NCBI GenBank assembly: GCA_964016885.1
Contig: OZ024756.1
Coordinates: 31,496,001-31,560,000 of the forward strand
Origin: Eledone cirrhosa
Taxonomy: Eukaryota
Direction of reading: 5' to 3'
DNA length: 64,000 bases
Shown here: positions 1 through 34,410 of the stretch, piece by piece
How the letters are laid out: each line of letters opens with the position of its first letter
Numbering within the stretch: the stretch's first letter is position 1
Program-made: the position numbers and the translations under genes
Notes under the pieces: model-generated
Database searches by the model: none
The model's input: the letters and a program-made list of their open reading frames with translations, nothing else
Told to the model about the DNA's origin: nothing

Positions 1-2433
1 ACAAGGTACGACGGTTAGGCGGTAGCAGATGACAGACGCGATGTACGCGTTAGCCACCTCCGCTCGACCTTTCAGGGATAGCTTCCTCTCCGCCCATTTC
101 TGGGTGAGAGAAGCCACCCTGCTCGTCACCTCGTCCCAGTTTTTGTCCGTCTGGAGGTCCGGACCGAACCAGACCCCTAGCAATTTAACCGGTCCGTCCG
201 TCCAGCGCCCGACGACGCTGTTGGACGGCATGGACCTGCCTCTCCAGGTGCCGAGCTGCAGGCCCACTGACTTTTCCTGGTTGATCATTGCTCCTGTCAC
301 CGCTTCGTATTCTCTTAGTGTAGTGCCGATCGCCTCGATGTGTTTGGCGTTCGACACCACTACGGTGACATCGTCCGCATATGCTGACACGGATCTTCCG
401 CATCCTAGTTCGCGCGGGACTCCCCTCAACGTCTCCAGTTTGTGCAGTAATGGCTCGAGAGTCAATACGTACAAGAGGGACGAGAGGGGACATCCTTGGC
501 GGACCGAGCGCATGATGTTGAACGGTTCCGACAGGTGACCGTTCACTCTCACCACAGAGCAGATGTCGCTGTGCATGGCAGCGATCCAGCCTCTGAAGAC
601 GGGCCCAAAGCCAGCCGCCCTCAGGACTGCCGCTAGGTAACGATGGTCGACCCTATCGAAAGCTTTCGACTGATCTAAATTGATCAAGGACCCACCCGTG
701 CCAGGTTCCCTAGCTACCCTCTCTACGATGTATCGCATGAGGTGGAGGTTGTCGTGGATGGATCTGTCGGGAATGGCGCATGTCTGCGCCTCTCCCACCA
801 GACCACCAACGACAAGCGCCAACCTCTTTGCTAGCACCTTGGCCAAAATCTTAAACTCTGTGTTTAGCAGAGTTATGGGCCGGAAATTGTCTATGTTATC
901 CCCCTTGTTCGGATCCTTTCTCAGCAGTGCCACCGCTCCTCGGCTCACAGAACTGGGAATTCTCCCGTTCTGTTGCCAGTTGCAGTAGACGTCCGCCAAG
1001 AGGCCTCCGAACAAGTCTGGCATCTGTACGTAAAGTTCATAGGGCAGACCATCCAAACCAGGCGATTTACCCCTTGTGCAGCCAGTCATTGCCTCCCGTA
1101 CTTCAGCGGCTGTTATCGGCTTTTCGCAACACCTCGCCTCAGTGGCCGAGAGCCGCGGCAGCCCGTCGAGGTAGACACTAAAGTCCATCCCTCTACCCGG
1201 CCCCCCGCTGCCCCCGAACAGCTGAGCGAAGTGTCGCTGAAAAGCTTCACACATTTGCCCGGGATCGAGTAGCATGCGCCCGTCCTGGTCCACCAAAGAC
1301 CGGATCGTGGCTTTGTTGCCACGACGCGCCTCCGCCACTCGGGCCCATTGAACGGCTTTCGTCCCCTCGTGTCTGAGAGCACGCACCCTAGCTCTGACAA
1401 CGCAGCCTTCGTGCTTTGCATTGAAGAATTGGTCAAGGGCCAATTTCGCCGCAAGCACGTCGGTCGCAATGCCTTTGCTAAGCGCCTCGTCTAATTTTCT
1501 AACTAGTTCTCCCTCTGCTCTATTTTTCTCTATTGCTAAAGCCTTACTAAACCTAATCGATTCTATTCTAATCGCTCTTTTCAGAGCAAACCACCACTTG
1601 TTGTTGACGATGGCCCCCGTCAACGCCCGCTTAACTAGTTCGCTAATCCGGTCTCTGTAGGCCTTGCGCGCTGGTAAGGACGCGTTTAGCTTCCAGTAGC
1701 CGGGTCCTCGTCTATGAAGCCTATCTAAGTCAAGCACACAGGTCACGAATTTGTGGTCCGTGTAGCTGACTATCTTGAATTGTGGACAGCCTATGCTAGA
1801 CCTATCTATTTCCCTACAAAATACTCTATCTAGATATGATCTGGATGACCCTATGCGGTTTGTCCAAGTCCACATTGGCACATTCGGGAAATCCAATCGG
1901 TACCTGTCAGACAGTTCAAAACGCCTGAGCAGGTTGGTGAGGCTCTTGCACCCTCCACCCCTATCCGCTAATCCCACACAGTCCCAGCGTGCATCTAAGA
2001 TCCCGTTCCAGTCGCCCACTAACACTAAAGAGCGGGACGTTCCAAGAAAGGTCTCCAGACGCCGGAAGAAATCAGGCCGCCCTGCTCCTGTCGGGGCATA
2101 GACGGCCACTAGCCTGAAAGATTGCCCGTCTCCGCTGGTCACGTCCAGCACCACCAGCTTACCCTCTGGGTCCAGGAAGATGGCCCGTATGGCGAGATCC
2201 AAACCTCTCCGAAAAAGTACAGCAACTCCTCCACCGGATCCAGGACGGCTGGGAGATGCGTACACATCGTAGCCGCCGAAGATCGGTGCGAAGGCCCGTG
2301 CTTCGGAGATTCTGGTCTCGCTGATGGCCACTACATCTATGTTTAGTGACCTGAGGTCGTTGAGCAGGTGACCCTGCTTCCATGACGACCCCAAGCCACG
2401 CGCATTTATGCTGCCTATTCTGAGTGAGGTCAT
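1..2433 (-). CDS. LINE ORF2: APE endonuclease + reverse transcriptase (partial, open at the window edge)
   Basis: Manual translation from ATG 2433: MTSLRIGSINARGLG...DVVAISET (APE N-terminus), GPGYWKLNASL, KSPGLDGLPYELY, FRPITLLNTEFKILAK, LINLDQSKAFDRVDH, VRQGCPLS, AYADDVT (YADD Tyr codon 379-381, same frame as the ATG). No stop seen in the segments translated. Missing from the ORF track, presumably because no stop codon falls inside the window. Confidence 0.95.
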   Translation of the reverse strand, partial: MTSLRIGSINARGLGSSWKQGHLLNDLRSLNIDVVAISETRISEARAFAPIFGGYDVYASPSRPGSGGGVAVLFRRGLDLAIRAIFLDPEGKLVVLDVTSGDGQSFRLVAVYAPTGAGRPDFFRRLETFLGTSRSLVLVGDWNGILDARWDCVGLADRGGGCKSLTNLLRRFELSDRYRLDFPNVPMWTWTNRIGSSRSYLDRVFCREIDRSSIGCPQFKIVSYTDHKFVTCVLDLDRLHRRGPGYWKLNASLPARKAYRDRISELVKRALTGAIVNNKWWFALKRAIRIESIRFSKALAIEKNRAEGELVRKLDEALSKGIATDVLAAKLALDQFFNAKHEGCVVRARVRALRHEGTKAVQWARVAEARRGNKATIRSLVDQDGRMLLDPGQMCEAFQRHFAQLFGGSGGPGRGMDFSVYLDGLPRLSATEARCCEKPITAAEVREAMTGCTRGKSPGLDGLPYELYVQMPDLFGGLLADVYCNWQQNGRIPSSVSRGAVALLRKDPNKGDNIDNFRPITLLNTEFKILAKVLAKRLALVVGGLVGEAQTCAIPDRSIHDNLHLMRYIVERVAREPGTGGSLINLDQSKAFDRVDHRYLAAVLRAAGFGPVFRGWIAAMHSDICSVVRVNGHLSEPFNIMRSVRQGCPLSSLLYVLTLEPLLHKLETLRGVPRELGCGRSVSAYADDVTVVVSNAKHIEAIGTTLREYEAVTGAMINQEKSVGLQLGTWRGRSMPSNSVVGRWTDGPVKLLGVWFGPDLQTDKNWDEVTSRVASLTQKWAERKLSLKGRAEVANAYIASVICYRLTVVPC

Positions 2434-2468
2434 GTTTAAAATAGAGTGGAAAAGATGGGAAAGACCAC

Positions 2469-4592
2469 TTACCGTATTTTTGGTAGAGGAGGGATGGTTT
2501 TTACATCCCTTTTCACTTGATCGTCTGGTGAAGGGACCGTTGAATCGTCCCTTCGGCTGGTCGTCGGCTCTTCTAAGAGAATGTCTGAATATACTCTTCG
2601 ATTAATGGTTCCTCCTAGGTCCCTGAAATCACCAACTGCGTTGGGGAATTTCGTTTTAATGTTTGTGTATTGTTTCTGTGCTATTTTTAGCAGTCTTATG
2701 TTAGTTGGCGTTTTGATTGGTGCTGGTATTATGTAGTCCTGTTGTGAAATGTCTGTGTGTTCAATTATGTAAGTCATTAGTTTCTTGTTGTGTGTGTTTA
2801 TTGCCGTGCATTTGTTTTTCTGGGGGTGGGGTGTGGTTCTGCTATTTTCTTGTCGTTGTTGCTGGGTGTGTGTGTTTTGTTGTTGTGTTTGCGATGTTGG
2901 TGCTTGTGGTGTTGAAGGTGTTGTTGGCGGTGGGGTTGTCGCCGGTGGTGATGGTGGTGCTGGTGTGGGTGGTGATGGTGTTGGTGGTGTTGCTGCTGTG
3001 GGTCTCTTTGCAGTAGACTTTACCCTTTTCTCATTTCTTTCCTCCCTTTTCAAAGGCGACGATGCGCTGCTTCTGCGTTTGTGCCTTCTTGAGACCTTTT
3101 GCCATCCCTCTCCCACCTCACACTCCATGTCTGATTCTGTAAGGTCGGGGAGGGGTACCAGCTCCACTCTTTCACTTGTTGTTGTTGGTGATGTTTGCAC
3201 TGGAGTCTCTGTTGCAGCTGCATTTGGTATTGCTGTTGTTGTTGTTAATATTTCCACTGCTGCTGCTGTCTTTGATTTCTGTGGAGTGGGTATGGGTGCC
3301 ACGGACCTATCGTTCCTGGTTGCCGCTTGTCCTGTTGCTGGTAGCCGTGGAACCGGATTCGGGAGGAGGGGGGTTTTCTCCTTTCTCAGGGTCTTCTCGT
3401 TGCAGAAGGCCCTGAGGTGAGTCTTCGATCCACAGCGAAAGCATTTCGGGCGTTTGCCCTCAACACTTATGGGCAGTTGAGTGCCGTTATCGAAGTCTAT
3501 CACATCCGGGATAGCTTCGATGCACTCCTGGTTGGTTTGGATTAGCATCTCAATGGAGGAGCCGACCCAATCTTCTCTTACTTTTTTCTGTACTTGCAGT
3601 ACAGTTGTTTTGTCCTCGATTCCGACGAGGACAGACGCGGCCAGCCAAGAAGGGGTCATTCCGGGGGGGACGTGGGTCAGTTTGACCCTCACAATTTTTT
3701 GCCCGCAGTAGGAGGGCACCAACACCATTTCCTCGCTCCTTAGGGTCACTACTGATTGGGCCTTTGCCTCCTGGGGTGTGGCAAAAAGTACGTCTACGGT
3801 GGCGTATTTTTTGCCTCGGGTGATGTGCGTTTTCCTCTGCCACACAGACCCCAAGGCTTTTTGTATTTGGGCCTCTGTGGCTCTTTCCACCCTACGGGAT
3901 TTTGTACTTACTGTACGGTACGTGACCGTACAGTGCTCTTGGGTTTCGAAAAAATTTTTCGCTGCCTTGCAGATTGCTCGGTGTCCGTTCTTTGTCACCA
4001 TCTTCTTCGCTTCCTCTAATTCCTCATTTGTTATGAGGATTGTTTCCAGGTTTTTCGCAATACCTGCAAATGAGATTGGTTTTTCTCTGCTGTTGTTGTT
4101 GTCGTCAGAGCTGCTGGTACTTTTGTTGTTGCTGCAGGTACTACGACTACTGCCTCCGCCGCTGTTGCTGTGGTTGTTGTTGGTGTTGCTGCTGCTAATG
4201 CTGTTGTTGTTTATGCTGCTGGTGATGCTGTTGCGGCTGCTACTGTTGTTTTCATTGTCACTGTTGCTGTTGTTATTACGGCTGCTACTGCTATTATTCC
4301 TGACGTCAGACGAATGAACTGGGTTTTCGTATTTCCCGCACACCTGTTTCGTCGCTGTCGTCGTCGTCGTGGAGAAACCTTGCACGCTTTGCACGAGACT
4401 TTTCTTTTCTTTCGTCGCTTGCGAAAGAGAAGGGAGGGAGAGAGACACATTTAAAGAAGGGAGGGAGAGAGACAATCTTCTCTCTGCTGTAGTGATGATT
4501 GAGGAAGAAGAAGACGGAATGAGTGGGAGTGACGTATGAAATTTCTTTTTGGTAGCCATGTTTTTTTGTTTAAAATGAAATTTTGGGTACAA
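2469..4592 (-). CDS. LINE ORF1 nucleic-acid-binding protein with CCHC zinc knuckle (first ATG at 4559)
   Basis: 707-aa ORF directly upstream of ORF2. Contains CFRCGSKTHLRAFC (CX2CX4HX4C), a GWQKVSRRHKRR basic motif, and Ser/Asn- and Pro/Thr-rich low-complexity tracts. Confidence 0.88.
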   Translation of the reverse strand: MYPKFHFKQKNMATKKKFHTSLPLIPSSSSSIITTAERRLSLSLPSLNVSLSLPSLSQATKEKKSLVQSVQGFSTTTTTATKQVCGKYENPVHSSDVRNNSSSSRNNNSNSDNENNSSSRNSITSSINNNSISSSNTNNNHSNSGGGSSRSTCSNNKSTSSSDDNNNSREKPISFAGIAKNLETILITNEELEEAKKMVTKNGHRAICKAAKNFFETQEHCTVTYRTVSTKSRRVERATEAQIQKALGSVWQRKTHITRGKKYATVDVLFATPQEAKAQSVVTLRSEEMVLVPSYCGQKIVRVKLTHVPPGMTPSWLAASVLVGIEDKTTVLQVQKKVREDWVGSSIEMLIQTNQECIEAIPDVIDFDNGTQLPISVEGKRPKCFRCGSKTHLRAFCNEKTLRKEKTPLLPNPVPRLPATGQAATRNDRSVAPIPTPQKSKTAAAVEILTTTTAIPNAAATETPVQTSPTTTSERVELVPLPDLTESDMECEVGEGWQKVSRRHKRRSSASSPLKREERNEKRVKSTAKRPTAATPPTPSPPTPAPPSPPATTPPPTTPSTPQAPTSQTQQQNTHTQQQRQENSRTTPHPQKNKCTAINTHNKKLMTYIIEHTDISQQDYIIPAPIKTPTNIRLLKIAQKQYTNIKTKFPNAVGDFRDLGGTINRRVYSDILLEEPTTSRRDDSTVPSPDDQVKRDVKTIPPLPKIR

Positions 4593-30410: not shown

Positions 30411-30545
30411 TGTGTGCGTATATATATATATATATATATATTATGAGAACAGATTAAAGTTTAAACAAAGAATCGCTGCTTTCACCCTTAAAGGGGTCTC
30501 CTGAAACTTATCGAGTCTTCGTATTTTAGTGTTCACATTTACTAT

Positions 30546-30579
<34 letters not shown>

Positions 30580-30646
30580 AAGGTTAAGCAAATAATGAAA
30601 AAGTTTCAAAATAAATTTTAAAAAATTGACTTTACCTACTATAGTT

Positions 30647-30729
30647 ACCTTTACCGATCGGTTTCGAATCCCAAAAATAAACGGAGACCATACGGCCTTC
30701 GTTGCAAAGAAAGATTCTCGTCAGAAGGT
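30647..30729 (-). ncRNA. Type I hammerhead ribozyme, copy 1
   Basis: ACCUU-CUGACGA-GAAUC...GAUUC-GAAA-CC-GAUC-GG-UA/AAGGU; predicted cleavage between 30652 and 30651. Confidence 0.88.
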
Positions 30730-31131
30730 TCTTTTCATTCGAAGAATATAAAATTCTTGAATTTAAATTACGAACTAGCGCTATCCAAAACTGTTCCTGA
30801 GATGAGAGTGAATGAAGTGGAATCAATTTTTTCAAGGGCCGAAGTAAAGATAGAGGCAGAGGGAGGTAGGTCAAACCGGCCGCAACTATCACTAGCAGCA
30901 GTCGGAACGACCCAATTTGTCTCTCAACAATAGAGGAGAGTAGTAATAATAGGATATGTGTTCCTTCACGCACAAGGCGCTAAGGGACGCATGTATTGTC
31001 CAACCAAATGCCAATGTGGTTCAATGGCAGGTTAATAAATTAACGAGCCAGAACATATATAAACAAGGTTAAGCAAATAATGAAAAAGTTTCAAAATAAA
31101 TTTTAAAAAATTGACTTTACCTACTATAGTT

Positions 31132-31214
31132 ACCTTTACCGATCGGTTTCGAATCCCAAAAATAAACGGAGACCATACGGCCTTCGTTGCAAAGAAAGAT
31201 TCTCGTCAGAAGGT
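31132..31214 (-). ncRNA. Type I hammerhead ribozyme, copy 2
   Basis: Same sequence as copy 1 (+485). Confidence 0.88.
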
Positions 31215-31616
31215 TCTTTTCATTCGAAGAATATAAAATTCTTGAATTTAAATTACGAACTAGCGCTATCCAAAACTGTTCCTGAGATGAGAGTGAATGA
31301 AGTGGAATCAATTTTTTCAAGGGCCGAAGTAAAGATAGAGGCAGAGGGAGGTAGGTCAAACCGGCCGCAACTATCACTAGCAGCAGTCGGAACGACCCAA
31401 TTTGTCTCTCAACAATAGAGGAGAGTAGTAATAATAGGATATGTGTTCCTTCACGCACAAGGCGCTAAGGGACGCATGTATTGTCCAACCAAATGCCAAT
31501 GTGGTTCAATGGCAGGTTAATAAATTAACGAGCCAGAACATATATAAACAAGGTTAAGCAAATAATGAAAAAGTTTCAAAATAAATTTTAAAAAATTGAC
31601 TTTACCTACTATAGTT

Positions 31617-31699
31617 ACCTTTACCGATCGGTTTCGAATCCCAAAAATAAACGGAGACCATACGGCCTTCGTTGCAAAGAAAGATTCTCGTCAGAAGGT
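31617..31699 (-). ncRNA. Type I hammerhead ribozyme, copy 3
   Basis: Same sequence as copy 1 (+970). Confidence 0.88.
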
Positions 31700-32101
31700 T
31701 CTTTTCATTCGAAGAATATAAAATTCTTGAATTTAAATTACGAACTAGCGCTATCCAAAACTGTTCCTGAGATGAGAGTGAATGAAGTGGAATCAATTTT
31801 TTCAAGGGCCGAAGTAAAGATAGAGGCAGAGGGAGGTAGGTCAAACCGGCCGCAACTATCACTAGCAGCAGTCGGAACGACCCAATTTGTCTCTCAACAA
31901 TAGAGGAGAGTAGTAATAATAGGATATGTGTTCCTTCACGCACAAGGCGCTAAGGGACGCATGTATTGTCCAACCAAATGCCAATGTGGTTCAATGGCAG
32001 GTTAATAAATTAACGAGCCGGAACATATATAAACAAGGTTAAGCAAATAATGAAAAAGTTTCAAAATAAATTTTAAAAAATTGACTTTACCTACTATAGT
32101 T

Positions 32102-32184
32102 ACCTTTACCGATCGGTTTCGAATCCCAAAAATAAACGGAGACCATACGGCCTTCGTTGCAAAGAAAGATTCTCGTCAGAAGGT
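32102..32184 (-). ncRNA. Type I hammerhead ribozyme, copy 4
   Basis: Same sequence as copy 1 (+1455). Confidence 0.88.
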
Positions 32185-32586
32185 TCTTTTCATTCGAAGA
32201 ATATAAAATTCTTGAATTTAAATTACGAACTAGCGCTATCCAAAACTGTTCCTGAGATGAGAGTGAATGAAGTGGAATCAATTTTTTCAAGGGCCGAAGT
32301 AAAGATAGAGGCAGAGGGAGGTAGGTCAAACCGGCCGCAACTATCACTAGCAGCAGTCGGAACGACCCAATTTGTCTCTCAACAATAGAGGAGAGTAGTA
32401 ATAATAGGATATGTGTTCCTTCACGCACAAGGCGCTAAGGGACGCATGTATTGTCCAACCAAATGCCAATGTGGTTCAATGGCAGGTTAATAAATTAACG
32501 AGCCAGAACATATATAAACAAGGTTAAGCAAATAATGAAAAAGTTTCAAAATAAATTTTAAAAAATTGACTTTACCTACTATAGTT

Positions 32587-32669
32587 ACCTTTACCGATCG
32601 GTTTCGAATCCCAAAAATAAACGGAGACCATACGGCCTTCGTTGCAAAGAAAGATTCTCGTCAGAAGGT
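32587..32669 (-). ncRNA. Type I hammerhead ribozyme, copy 5
   Basis: Same sequence as copy 1 (+1940). Confidence 0.88.
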
Positions 32670-33071
32670 TCTTTTCATTCGAAGAATATAAAATTCTTGA
32701 ATTTAAATTACGAACTAGCGCTATCCAAAACTGTTCCTGAGATGAGAGTGAATGAAGTGGAATCAATTTTTTCAAGGGCCGAAGTAAAGATAGAGGCAGA
32801 GGGAGGTAGGTCAAACCGGCCGCAACTATCACTAGCAGCAGTCGGAACGACCCAATTTGTCTCTCAACAATAGAGGAGAGTAGTAATAATAGGATATGTG
32901 TTCCTTCACGCACAAGGCGCTAAGGGACGCATGTATTGTCCAACCAAATGCCAATGTGGTTCAATGGCAGGTTAATAAATTAACGAGCCAGAACATATAT
33001 AAACAAGGTTAAGCAAATAATGAAAAAGTTTCAAAATAAATTTTAAAAAATTGACTTTACCTACTATAGTT

Positions 33072-33154
33072 ACCTTTACCGATCGGTTTCGAATCCCAAA
33101 AATAAACGGAGACCATACGGCCTTCGTTGCAAAGAAAGATTCTCGTCAGAAGGT
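33072..33154 (-). ncRNA. Type I hammerhead ribozyme, copy 6
   Basis: Same sequence as copy 1 (+2425). Confidence 0.88.
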
Positions 33155-33556
33155 TCTTTTCATTCGAAGAATATAAAATTCTTGAATTTAAATTACGAAC
33201 TAGCGCTATCCAAAACTGTTCCTGAGATGAGAGTGAATGAAGTGGAATCAATTTTTTCAAGGGCCGAAGTAAAGATAGAGGCAGAGGGAGGTAGGTCAAA
33301 CCGGCCGCAACTATCACTAGCAGCAGTCGGAACGACCCAATTTGTCTCTCAACAATAGAGGAGAGTAGTAATAATAGGATATGTGTTCCTTCACGCACAA
33401 GGCGCTAAGGGACGCATGTATTGTCCAACCAAATGCCAATGTGGTTCAATGGCAGGTTAATAAATTAACGAGCCAGAACATATATAAACAAGGTTAAGCA
33501 AATAATGAAAAAGTTTCAAAATAAATTTTAAAAAATTGACTTTACCTACTATAGTT

Positions 33557-33639
33557 ACCTTTACCGATCGGTTTCGAATCCCAAAAATAAACGGAGACCA
33601 TACGGCCTTCGTTGCAAAGAAAGATTCTCGTCAGAAGGT
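33557..33639 (-). ncRNA. Type I hammerhead ribozyme, copy 7 (in the partial unit)
   Basis: Same sequence as copy 1 (+2910). Confidence 0.88.
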
Positions 33640-33667
33640 TCTTTTCATTCGAAGAATATAAAATTCT

Positions 33668-33719
<52 letters not shown>

Positions 33720-34264
33720 TATGTTACTGACGATCGACAGAAAAGTGTATTCAATACCAAGGTAGAGTTTAAATACTAATTTTATTAGGGCTAAATAGTG
33801 ACTCTTATTGCTCTGAAGGCTCACTTTTAGCCCTAATAAAATGAAGACTCACATTTAGCCCTAATAAAATGAATATATATAAAATGTGTATGTGCCAACA
33901 AACATCGGATTTTTACGAAGCGTTGAGGGAATAAAACTAATATAAAGAATGGTGTGTTTATGCGCGAAGATGCTATAAAATATTGTATAAAATAGACTGG
34001 TGAGCCTTAAAGACCGAAATTGATGTTGACATTGGCCTCTATGAGGAATTGAACACCCGATTTATTGTTCTTCATGTTCTTGCTGTTGATGTCCAATGCT
34101 AGGTATGCCTTGATTCTAGATATAACAATCCCTCTGTTGATTTCAAGACGTTAGAAAGTGGTTTCAGGAGGACTTTTACTACTATTTCTAACAATTTCAA
34201 TTACCATATTGAGTCTGTTTCATATGAAGCTCAAGGGATATATTTTTTCCTATTGAATCTCTCT

Positions 34265-34410
34265 CTAATGCGGGTAAAATTCCCGAGATCCATGGACGAG
34301 TTCCCTCCAGCAGTTTCTGTCCCCCATCATAGCTGCCATGTCCTGCATCTCCAAGAGACCAGTGTCTGTCCTTAGGGCATCAACATATGTCAACCTTGGT
34401 CTCCCTCTTT
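34265..34410 (-). mobile_element. 3'-terminal fragment of an RTE-like LINE ORF
   Basis: Translation RGRPRLTYVDALRTDTG...AAMMGDRNCWRELV matches the RGRP...DR..WR C-terminal motif of RTE-type LINE ORFs. Confidence 0.7.

Follow-up and report, generated by a model that had tools for sequence, protein, structure and literature searches.

How does a 485-nt unit with a hammerhead motif come to stand head to tail, more than six times over, inside a (TA)n microsatellite? The question is raised by an array near the middle of the window (the whole 64,000-nt stretch analysed, from Eledone cirrhosa). A preliminary description had proposed a single recent insertion, in which a reverse transcriptase (RT) primed by TA microhomology went about 6.4 times round a circular RNA and read through the ligated junction. 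Here, the array was compared with its relatives across the 3.0 Gb assembly.

The window array and its ribozyme motif

Monomer positions are numbered from the predicted ribozyme cut in the RNA sense. The features of the locus are as follows.

30570 to 33669, minus strand: tandem retrozyme array made up of 6.39 copies of a 485-nt unit; in the RNA sense its 3' end is at 30570 (monomer 82) and its 5' end at 33669 (monomer 369)
30549 to 30576, no strand: left (TA)n tract, of which 30570-30576 is common to the unit; putative priming end
33670 to 33716, no strand: right (TA)n tract, 47 nt, abutting the 5'-truncated array end with microhomology absent
32020, plus strand: A>G substitution private to one unit (monomer 87, U>C)
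30586 and every 485 nt from there, minus strand: monomer position 66, with U in 7/7 copies where the 39 other top-scoring loci have A
30647 to 30729, minus strand: first of seven type I hammerhead motifs, the rest following at steps of 485 and the last at 33557-33639; predicted cut between 30652 and 30651

Both Tandem Repeats Finder and direct comparison gave 6.39 copies of the 485-bp unit, in line with the non-integer number of about 6.4 given earlier, and the 485-nt periodicity broke off exactly at 30570 and 33669. Neither end lies at the cut, as had been described: the distance downstream from the cut to the left end amounts to 82 nt with the shared ATATAT and 75-76 nt without, and the right-hand end lies 30 nt upstream of stem I in the last ribozyme (33639). 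The left boundary was also correctly placed on an ATATAT of the unit that merges with the flanking (TA)n, as the first 6-7 bases of the unit prolong the left tract. At the right end the unit would continue with AATTT and the genome reads TATAT, leaving no microhomology. The substitution at 32020 proved to be the sole difference among the copies, as first noticed, and copy-by-copy comparison revealed no divergence gradient along the array. No open reading frame of at least 120 aa was found within 30570-33669.

All seven hammerhead motifs are complete and lie on the minus strand, one per unit. Each has a stem I (ACCUU/AAGGU), CUGACGA, a stem II of 7 bp that encloses a long insert, GAAA and a short palindromic stem III (CCG-AU-CGG), with UA preceding the predicted cut. 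An Rfam scan of the window returned nothing at gathering score, and the 98-nt ribozyme region folded alone was no better than shuffled sequences (z = -1.05), with stem III missing from the minimum-energy structure; the hammerhead call therefore rests on the motif and its stems, from which we infer self-cleavage activity. The predicted circular fold of the 485-nt monomer reached -113.1 kcal/mol (z = -3.1, 60 shuffles).

Several other elements are present nearby. Two short, very high-copy repeats stand either side of the array (30411-30548 and 34257-34409), the first of which turns up next to many retrozymes inserted in (TA)n, frequently as an inverted pair. An imperfect inverted repeat (33770-33879, 74%) contains an internal 28-bp tandem, and ahead of it, at about 33728-33745, is a stretch resembling CUGACGA...GAAA. 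On the strand opposite the ribozyme, every unit also has a plus-strand sequence (30660-30672 in the first unit, GGTTTCGAATCCC) resembling an RNA polymerase III B box.

The array is a member of a dispersed non-LTR retrozyme family, with a short non-coding tandem unit, one type I hammerhead per unit, dispersed copies and no LTR. The genome search yielded 1949 family candidates, and the 40 that were scored gave 174 matches. No second haplotype or alternate haplotig of the window locus is present in the assembly. In three runs from another sample, which covered the right flank at a depth of 3-5, position 66 had the family base only and the (TA)n tracts were unbridged; looser read matching left a residue of 13.8 in 55,959. 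This suggests that the window array is absent from that other sample, although the empty site itself was unobserved. Near-perfect identity of the copies is also what would be expected if the assembly had inflated the copy number from a shorter repeat. Such an artefact is hardly credible given a 3.1-kb array with a unit-private substitution and single-copy flank, together with dozens of loci that have their own haplotypes and ends.

Fixed 3' ends and two-armed insertions

In total, 98 loci were examined: the 40 top-scoring loci (including the window array), one with the private base 66, 49 new loci found by a pattern at monomer 265-286, and eight hand-picked for a multi-copy or inverted look. 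A control sample was formed of 63 loci (the 49 new and 14 already in the set), all among the first 100 of 326 pattern matches. This sample is biased against an end at 82, because its anchor at 265-286 is nearer the cut than 82 or 190 in the copying direction. Two further features become relevant here.

30579 to 30640, minus strand: AU-rich hairpin predicted at monomer 12-73, immediately 5' of the main 3' end (circular fold prediction)
30940 to 30954, minus strand: monomer 183-196, the other 3' end site common to the family; copied through in the window array, while two-armed relatives have their second arm's outer end here

The 98 loci gave 140 RNA-sense 3' ends, of which 94 were at 80-84, 40 at 183-196 and six elsewhere. 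None of the 140 arms ended at the cut, and no A-tails were seen. Among the 37 single-arm loci of the control sample, 33 ended at 80-84, three at 183-196 and one elsewhere, so that the shared 3' end at the ATATAT expected from the preliminary description was recovered in a sample chosen against that outcome. The variable 5' ends that it also foresaw were found, scattered over the whole unit in these 37 loci. The 3' flank was TA-like in 34/37, with no poly(A) end. An apparent pile-up of 5' ends at the cut was discarded, as it amounted to about 4/140 and some cases overran the junction or sat in GTA/TA microhomology. Genome-wide, at least 330 exact (TA)-junction ends occur at monomer 82 (control 0), as well as 212 read-through matches (control 0); the junction pattern carrying the private base 66 of the window array gave two matches, as compared to 330 for the relaxed pattern. 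As candidate target-site duplications, direct repeats in imperfect tracts (e.g. 22 nt in L046) are indistinguishable from microsatellite structure. Single (TA)n tracts were also observed to host insertions of different retrozyme families.

No alternating AU run in the monomer is longer than the one at the main site, 82, with its 7 nt. Microhomology at the second site, near 190, is 2-3 nt, yet this site accounts for 40/140 arms, and a 5-nt TATAT at monomer 387-391 was used by 0/140. Microhomology alone is therefore not choosing the site, and the proposed priming by TA microhomology fits the main site at the ATATAT and fails to account for the other two. Position, acting via RNA structure, probably selects the start site, and microhomology sets the register.

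Head-to-head two-armed insertions, which the preliminary description had missed, were found at 42/98 loci, and in 34 of these one site is joined with the other, the two being about 109 nt apart. The control sample contained 26 two-armed loci among 63, all 26 with their 3' ends outward: 22 pair 82 with about 190, one pairs 82 with 82, and three pair 82 with another site. The 22 mixed pairs among 23 would be improbable even if both sites were used equally (P = 3e-6). Fold-back copying of the first cDNA was rejected as the origin of the second arm, since the inner ends are not close to each other (median 144, as compared to 121 expected; P = 0.89). One tiny two-armed insertion with base 66U (L071, C28:89157685-89157829) is a possible daughter or sibling of the window array.

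Sister retrozyme families (L079, L173-L202) have units of about 465-488 nt, a CCG-N-CGG stem III and a GGUAAAU hairpin start; sequences sharing this stem III gave 1017 matches (control 92). In these families the distance from the cut to the 3' ends is 78-92 nt, and three two-armed loci pair an end at 88-91 with one at 182-197. The 465-nt family also has a similar predicted hairpin in the corresponding position, before the end site. One sister locus (L183-L186, C1:30666876-30668008) has a duplicated 3' fragment plus TA tract at spacings of 335 and 297; the duplication is secondary and takes in flank.

A probable single template per array

Within arrays, units differ by 0.18%, as compared to 1.96% between arrays (131 full units), which bears out the earlier expectation of within-array homogeneity, as does 66U in 7/7 window copies. 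Between them, 9/35 young loci have 11 rare variants that every copy at the locus carries. The variant 345T has 11 exact genome matches, all in L058, where it is fixed in 11/11 copies, five and six per arm. The variant 66U has nine genome matches: seven in the window array, one in an 82-nt arm too short for a full unit, and another in an old copy (93%). Since 66U is limited to these three places, the assembly holds no longer source array. No minority variant (0/23) is common to different young arrays, and at young two-armed loci 19/23 informative sites agree between the arms. Unit junctions are exact in 144/144 young cases and in 244/248 overall, so that the cut site was read through without scar, as the proposed read-through of the ligated junction had it. 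Editing of A to I was tried as the source of the variants and dropped, as A>G makes up only 2/11 fixed rare variants and 19/271 private ones, as compared to 40 U>C.

Purity, private variants and exact junctions together argue that the arrays were probably born long from one monomer. Judged by these sequence patterns, array units were probably copied from one monomer, with exceptions at L049, where a block (460C, 61C, 98C) crosses a junction, L037, whose short arm lacks 148T, L032, which alternates at 163, and L093. The last, an old two-armed array (C1:346380100-346385400), has nested common variants in its three inner units that the outer parts lack, and likely underwent DNA-level tandem duplication after insertion; DNA-level duplication thus probably also occurs. 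An initial insertion of only about 1.4 units, enlarged afterwards through unequal crossing-over or replication slippage, could in principle account for the window array as well, and local amplification is invoked in the text of 10.64898/2026.07.22.740005. This is improbable, however, because 66U occupies 7/7 copies including the terminal partial one, private variants elsewhere are common to both inverted arms, and long arrays are commonest in the youngest loci, with the window array showing no gradient. Arrays of at least 2.5 units occur at 6/16 of the youngest loci, as compared to 3/47 of the older ones; over all loci the relation of array length to divergence is weak (Spearman -0.21, P = 0.10).

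Concatemers could also form with no circle, if the RT jumped end to end between cut linear monomers. R2-type RTs jump from end to end, and the rare mosaic units at L049, L037 and L032 are of the kind that such jumping would leave. Against this stand the 144/144 exact young junctions and the near purity of arrays drawn from an RNA pool of many haplotypes, and we regard jumping between monomers as a slim prospect, slightly less probable even than later DNA expansion. Repeated jumping onto the same molecule would be indistinguishable from copying a circle.

The most serious competitor is a long, largely uncut linear multimer transcribed from a source array, with copy number set by the point of RT fall-off and the two arms produced by twin priming. 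Arms primed near 190 stop at 68-84, adjoining the other priming site, in 6/36 cases, and in five of these the arm is longer than one unit; this is an excess over a uniform expectation (P = 0.0015) and a weaker one over the 2/43 of the remaining arms (P = 0.13). The median distance to the priming site of the partner is likewise short (49, as compared to 71 expected; P = 0.035). These stops favour a linear multimer, because collision after twin priming is expected there, whereas on a circle nothing special remains at that point after the first round. In addition, L101 is compatible with a linear dimer whose 5' end was cut, the short stem III drops out of the minimum-energy fold, and the in vitro data and model in the text of PMC11167929 point the same way. 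However, L058 and L056 would need 10.6-12 uncut units, and their source would have to carry 345T or 66U in all of its units; none of this kind is in the assembly, although a single assembly may miss sources. The 0/23 minority variants common to young arrays also count against a multimer, and amplification of one unit would still be required at some step. On balance, a multimeric template is unlikely, if clearly the strongest of the alternatives. Of the rolling-circle RT on circular RNA first proposed, the signs of a one-monomer template thus stand; circularity is likely only, with some support remaining for the linear multimer, and circle and multimer may both be used as templates.

For the window array, then, rolling-circle copying remains the account we favour, and we think it probable that a single recent insertion into (TA)n took place as follows. 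Transcription and self-cleavage would yield 485-nt RNA monomers, which would be ligated into circles. The (TA)n microsatellite would be nicked by an RT/GIY-YIG protein of a Penelope-like element, and synthesis would be primed at monomer 82, immediately 3' of the predicted hairpin, with a few TA bases fixing the register. Strand-displacing synthesis would proceed about 6.4 times round one circular monomer, and the truncated end (369) would be joined to the other half of the (TA)n tract. If the other DNA end were to prime too, synthesis from it would start on the same RNA at the second site, near 190, giving a head-to-head two-armed insertion.

A likely Penelope-like enzyme and known systems

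An RT is encoded in the window itself.

1 to 2601, minus strand: APE-type non-LTR element, an open 867-aa frame running off the window, with Exo_endo_phos and RVT_1

This APE-type RT, named Tx1 in the preliminary description, was rejected as the agent, as no arm starts at an RNA end or A-tail (0/140 at the cut), in agreement with the preliminary description, which had not implicated it. Nine other open reading frames of the window had no RT match, and one had a weak DUF3915 match below the cut-off.

A second enzyme class, likewise overlooked at first, is suggested by the reading frame next to one retrozyme locus, a 1217-aa frame in which an RT is followed by a GIY-YIG-like segment. Pfam returned RVT_1 only for this protein (22.7 bits, below the 29.6 cut-off) and no GIY-YIG match; the endonuclease motif was read by eye. 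All 71/71 scored copies of the frame are 100% identical over 619 aa. The Penelope-like unit is 4117 bp long, contains a hammerhead motif and lies in (TA)n, and its tandems show 0 differences in 3902 nt. The loci L131-L172 (e.g. L162, C1:307339000-307348900) represent this very young intact family, with multi-unit exact tandems and two-armed insertions. As judged from its sequence, the 1217-aa family is active, or currently amplifying. Among ten two-armed copies with both ends visible, from loci picked for inversions, nine pair an end at 209-216 with one at 259-274. The element's own 11- and 13-nt TA runs are not used as end sites.

The layout of the retrozyme insertions is that of Penelope-like elements, and a protein of the Penelope-like class is therefore likely to mobilise the retrozyme, by analogy. 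The 1217-aa family is a candidate only, because it shares no sequence likeness with the retrozyme and its site spacing is different. The comparison of the retrozyme with the terminal repeat of the active element gave a best E-value of 1.4 (30 loci) and a local score of 33, as compared to a shuffle maximum of 35; the two sites of the active element are 43-65 nt apart, as compared to about 109 nt in the retrozyme. A second, older Penelope-like family has a hammerhead unrelated to that of the retrozyme, and no parent element was found by sequence among the Penelope-like families compared. A hammerhead beside an open reading frame at L191 was set aside as a parent element, as it belongs to a separate insert.

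The retrozyme class and the circle hypothesis are already in print, from 2014-2020. In the text of PMC7229834 (Cervera and de la Pena 2020), copying of circular RNA into tandem cDNA by an RT is proposed, with Penelope-like elements as strong candidates. The metazoan non-LTR retrozymes described there resemble the window family in their tandem units, non-coding and with a single type I hammerhead, their dispersed arrays and the co-resident Penelope-like elements. They differ in unit length (about 170-400 nt, as compared to 485 nt), and the window family is known from DNA alone; the internal ends at fixed sites, the (TA)n target, the two-armed insertions and the pure haplotypes of the window family are not described in the passages of that paper compared here. 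For GIY-YIG Penelope-like elements, the text of 10.1101/2021.04.23.441226 and PMC4209133 reports partial tandems, an inverted 5'-truncated partner, a 'tail' and a hammerhead, as well as a (TA)n bias and a microsatellite target that masks target duplications, and the text of PMC4209133 proposes circular RNA as the template from which copies longer than one unit arise. The window family shares the tandem, inverted and longer-end layout of these elements, but it has no open reading frame and its tail is about 109 nt, as compared to the 30-40 nt described in those texts.

The in vitro study of PAc Poseidon (PMC11167929) provides a biochemical parallel: according to its text, both strands are nicked and extended at AT-rich DNA, and two internal RNA sites define the tail. 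Ribozyme cleavage was dispensable in vitro, and multi-copy mRNA was proposed as the template. PAc starts at RNA sites without homology to the DNA, whereas the main site of the window family has 7 nt of TA microhomology, and no circular RNA template is among the PAc assays described in that text. Li, Clavereau and Pollet 2026 (10.64898/2026.07.22.740005) derive animal retrozymes from Penelope-like terminal repeats on the basis of co-occurrence and phylogeny, mostly in vertebrates; the text compared here does not mention insertion sites. The literature covered, mostly open-access main texts, contained no report of the window family or of such retrozyme insertion footprints.

Copying of retrozymes and Penelope-like elements from circular RNA is, in the texts cited here, a proposal in print and not demonstrated there, and the in vitro study favours uncut linear RNA (PMC11167929). 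The window family gives sequence-level tests of this proposal, in the form of private variants on both arms, exact junctions and fixed start sites. The sequences themselves make a circular template likely, and the 485-nt RNA together with the intact 1217-aa protein forms a reagent pair for distinguishing circle from multimer. A programmable RT that writes small-circle concatemers into (TA)n would matter for genome-writing tools. Our broadest reading is put forward tentatively, as one that may be true but that we hold at slightly less than even: the arrays would be genomic records of rolling-circle copying, by strand displacement, in which a telomerase-related Penelope RT is loaded at two structure-defined sites of one ribozyme-made circle and primed from both (TA)n break ends at once, and the same route would explain why the active element occurs in tandem 4.1-kb copies and has pseudo-LTRs.
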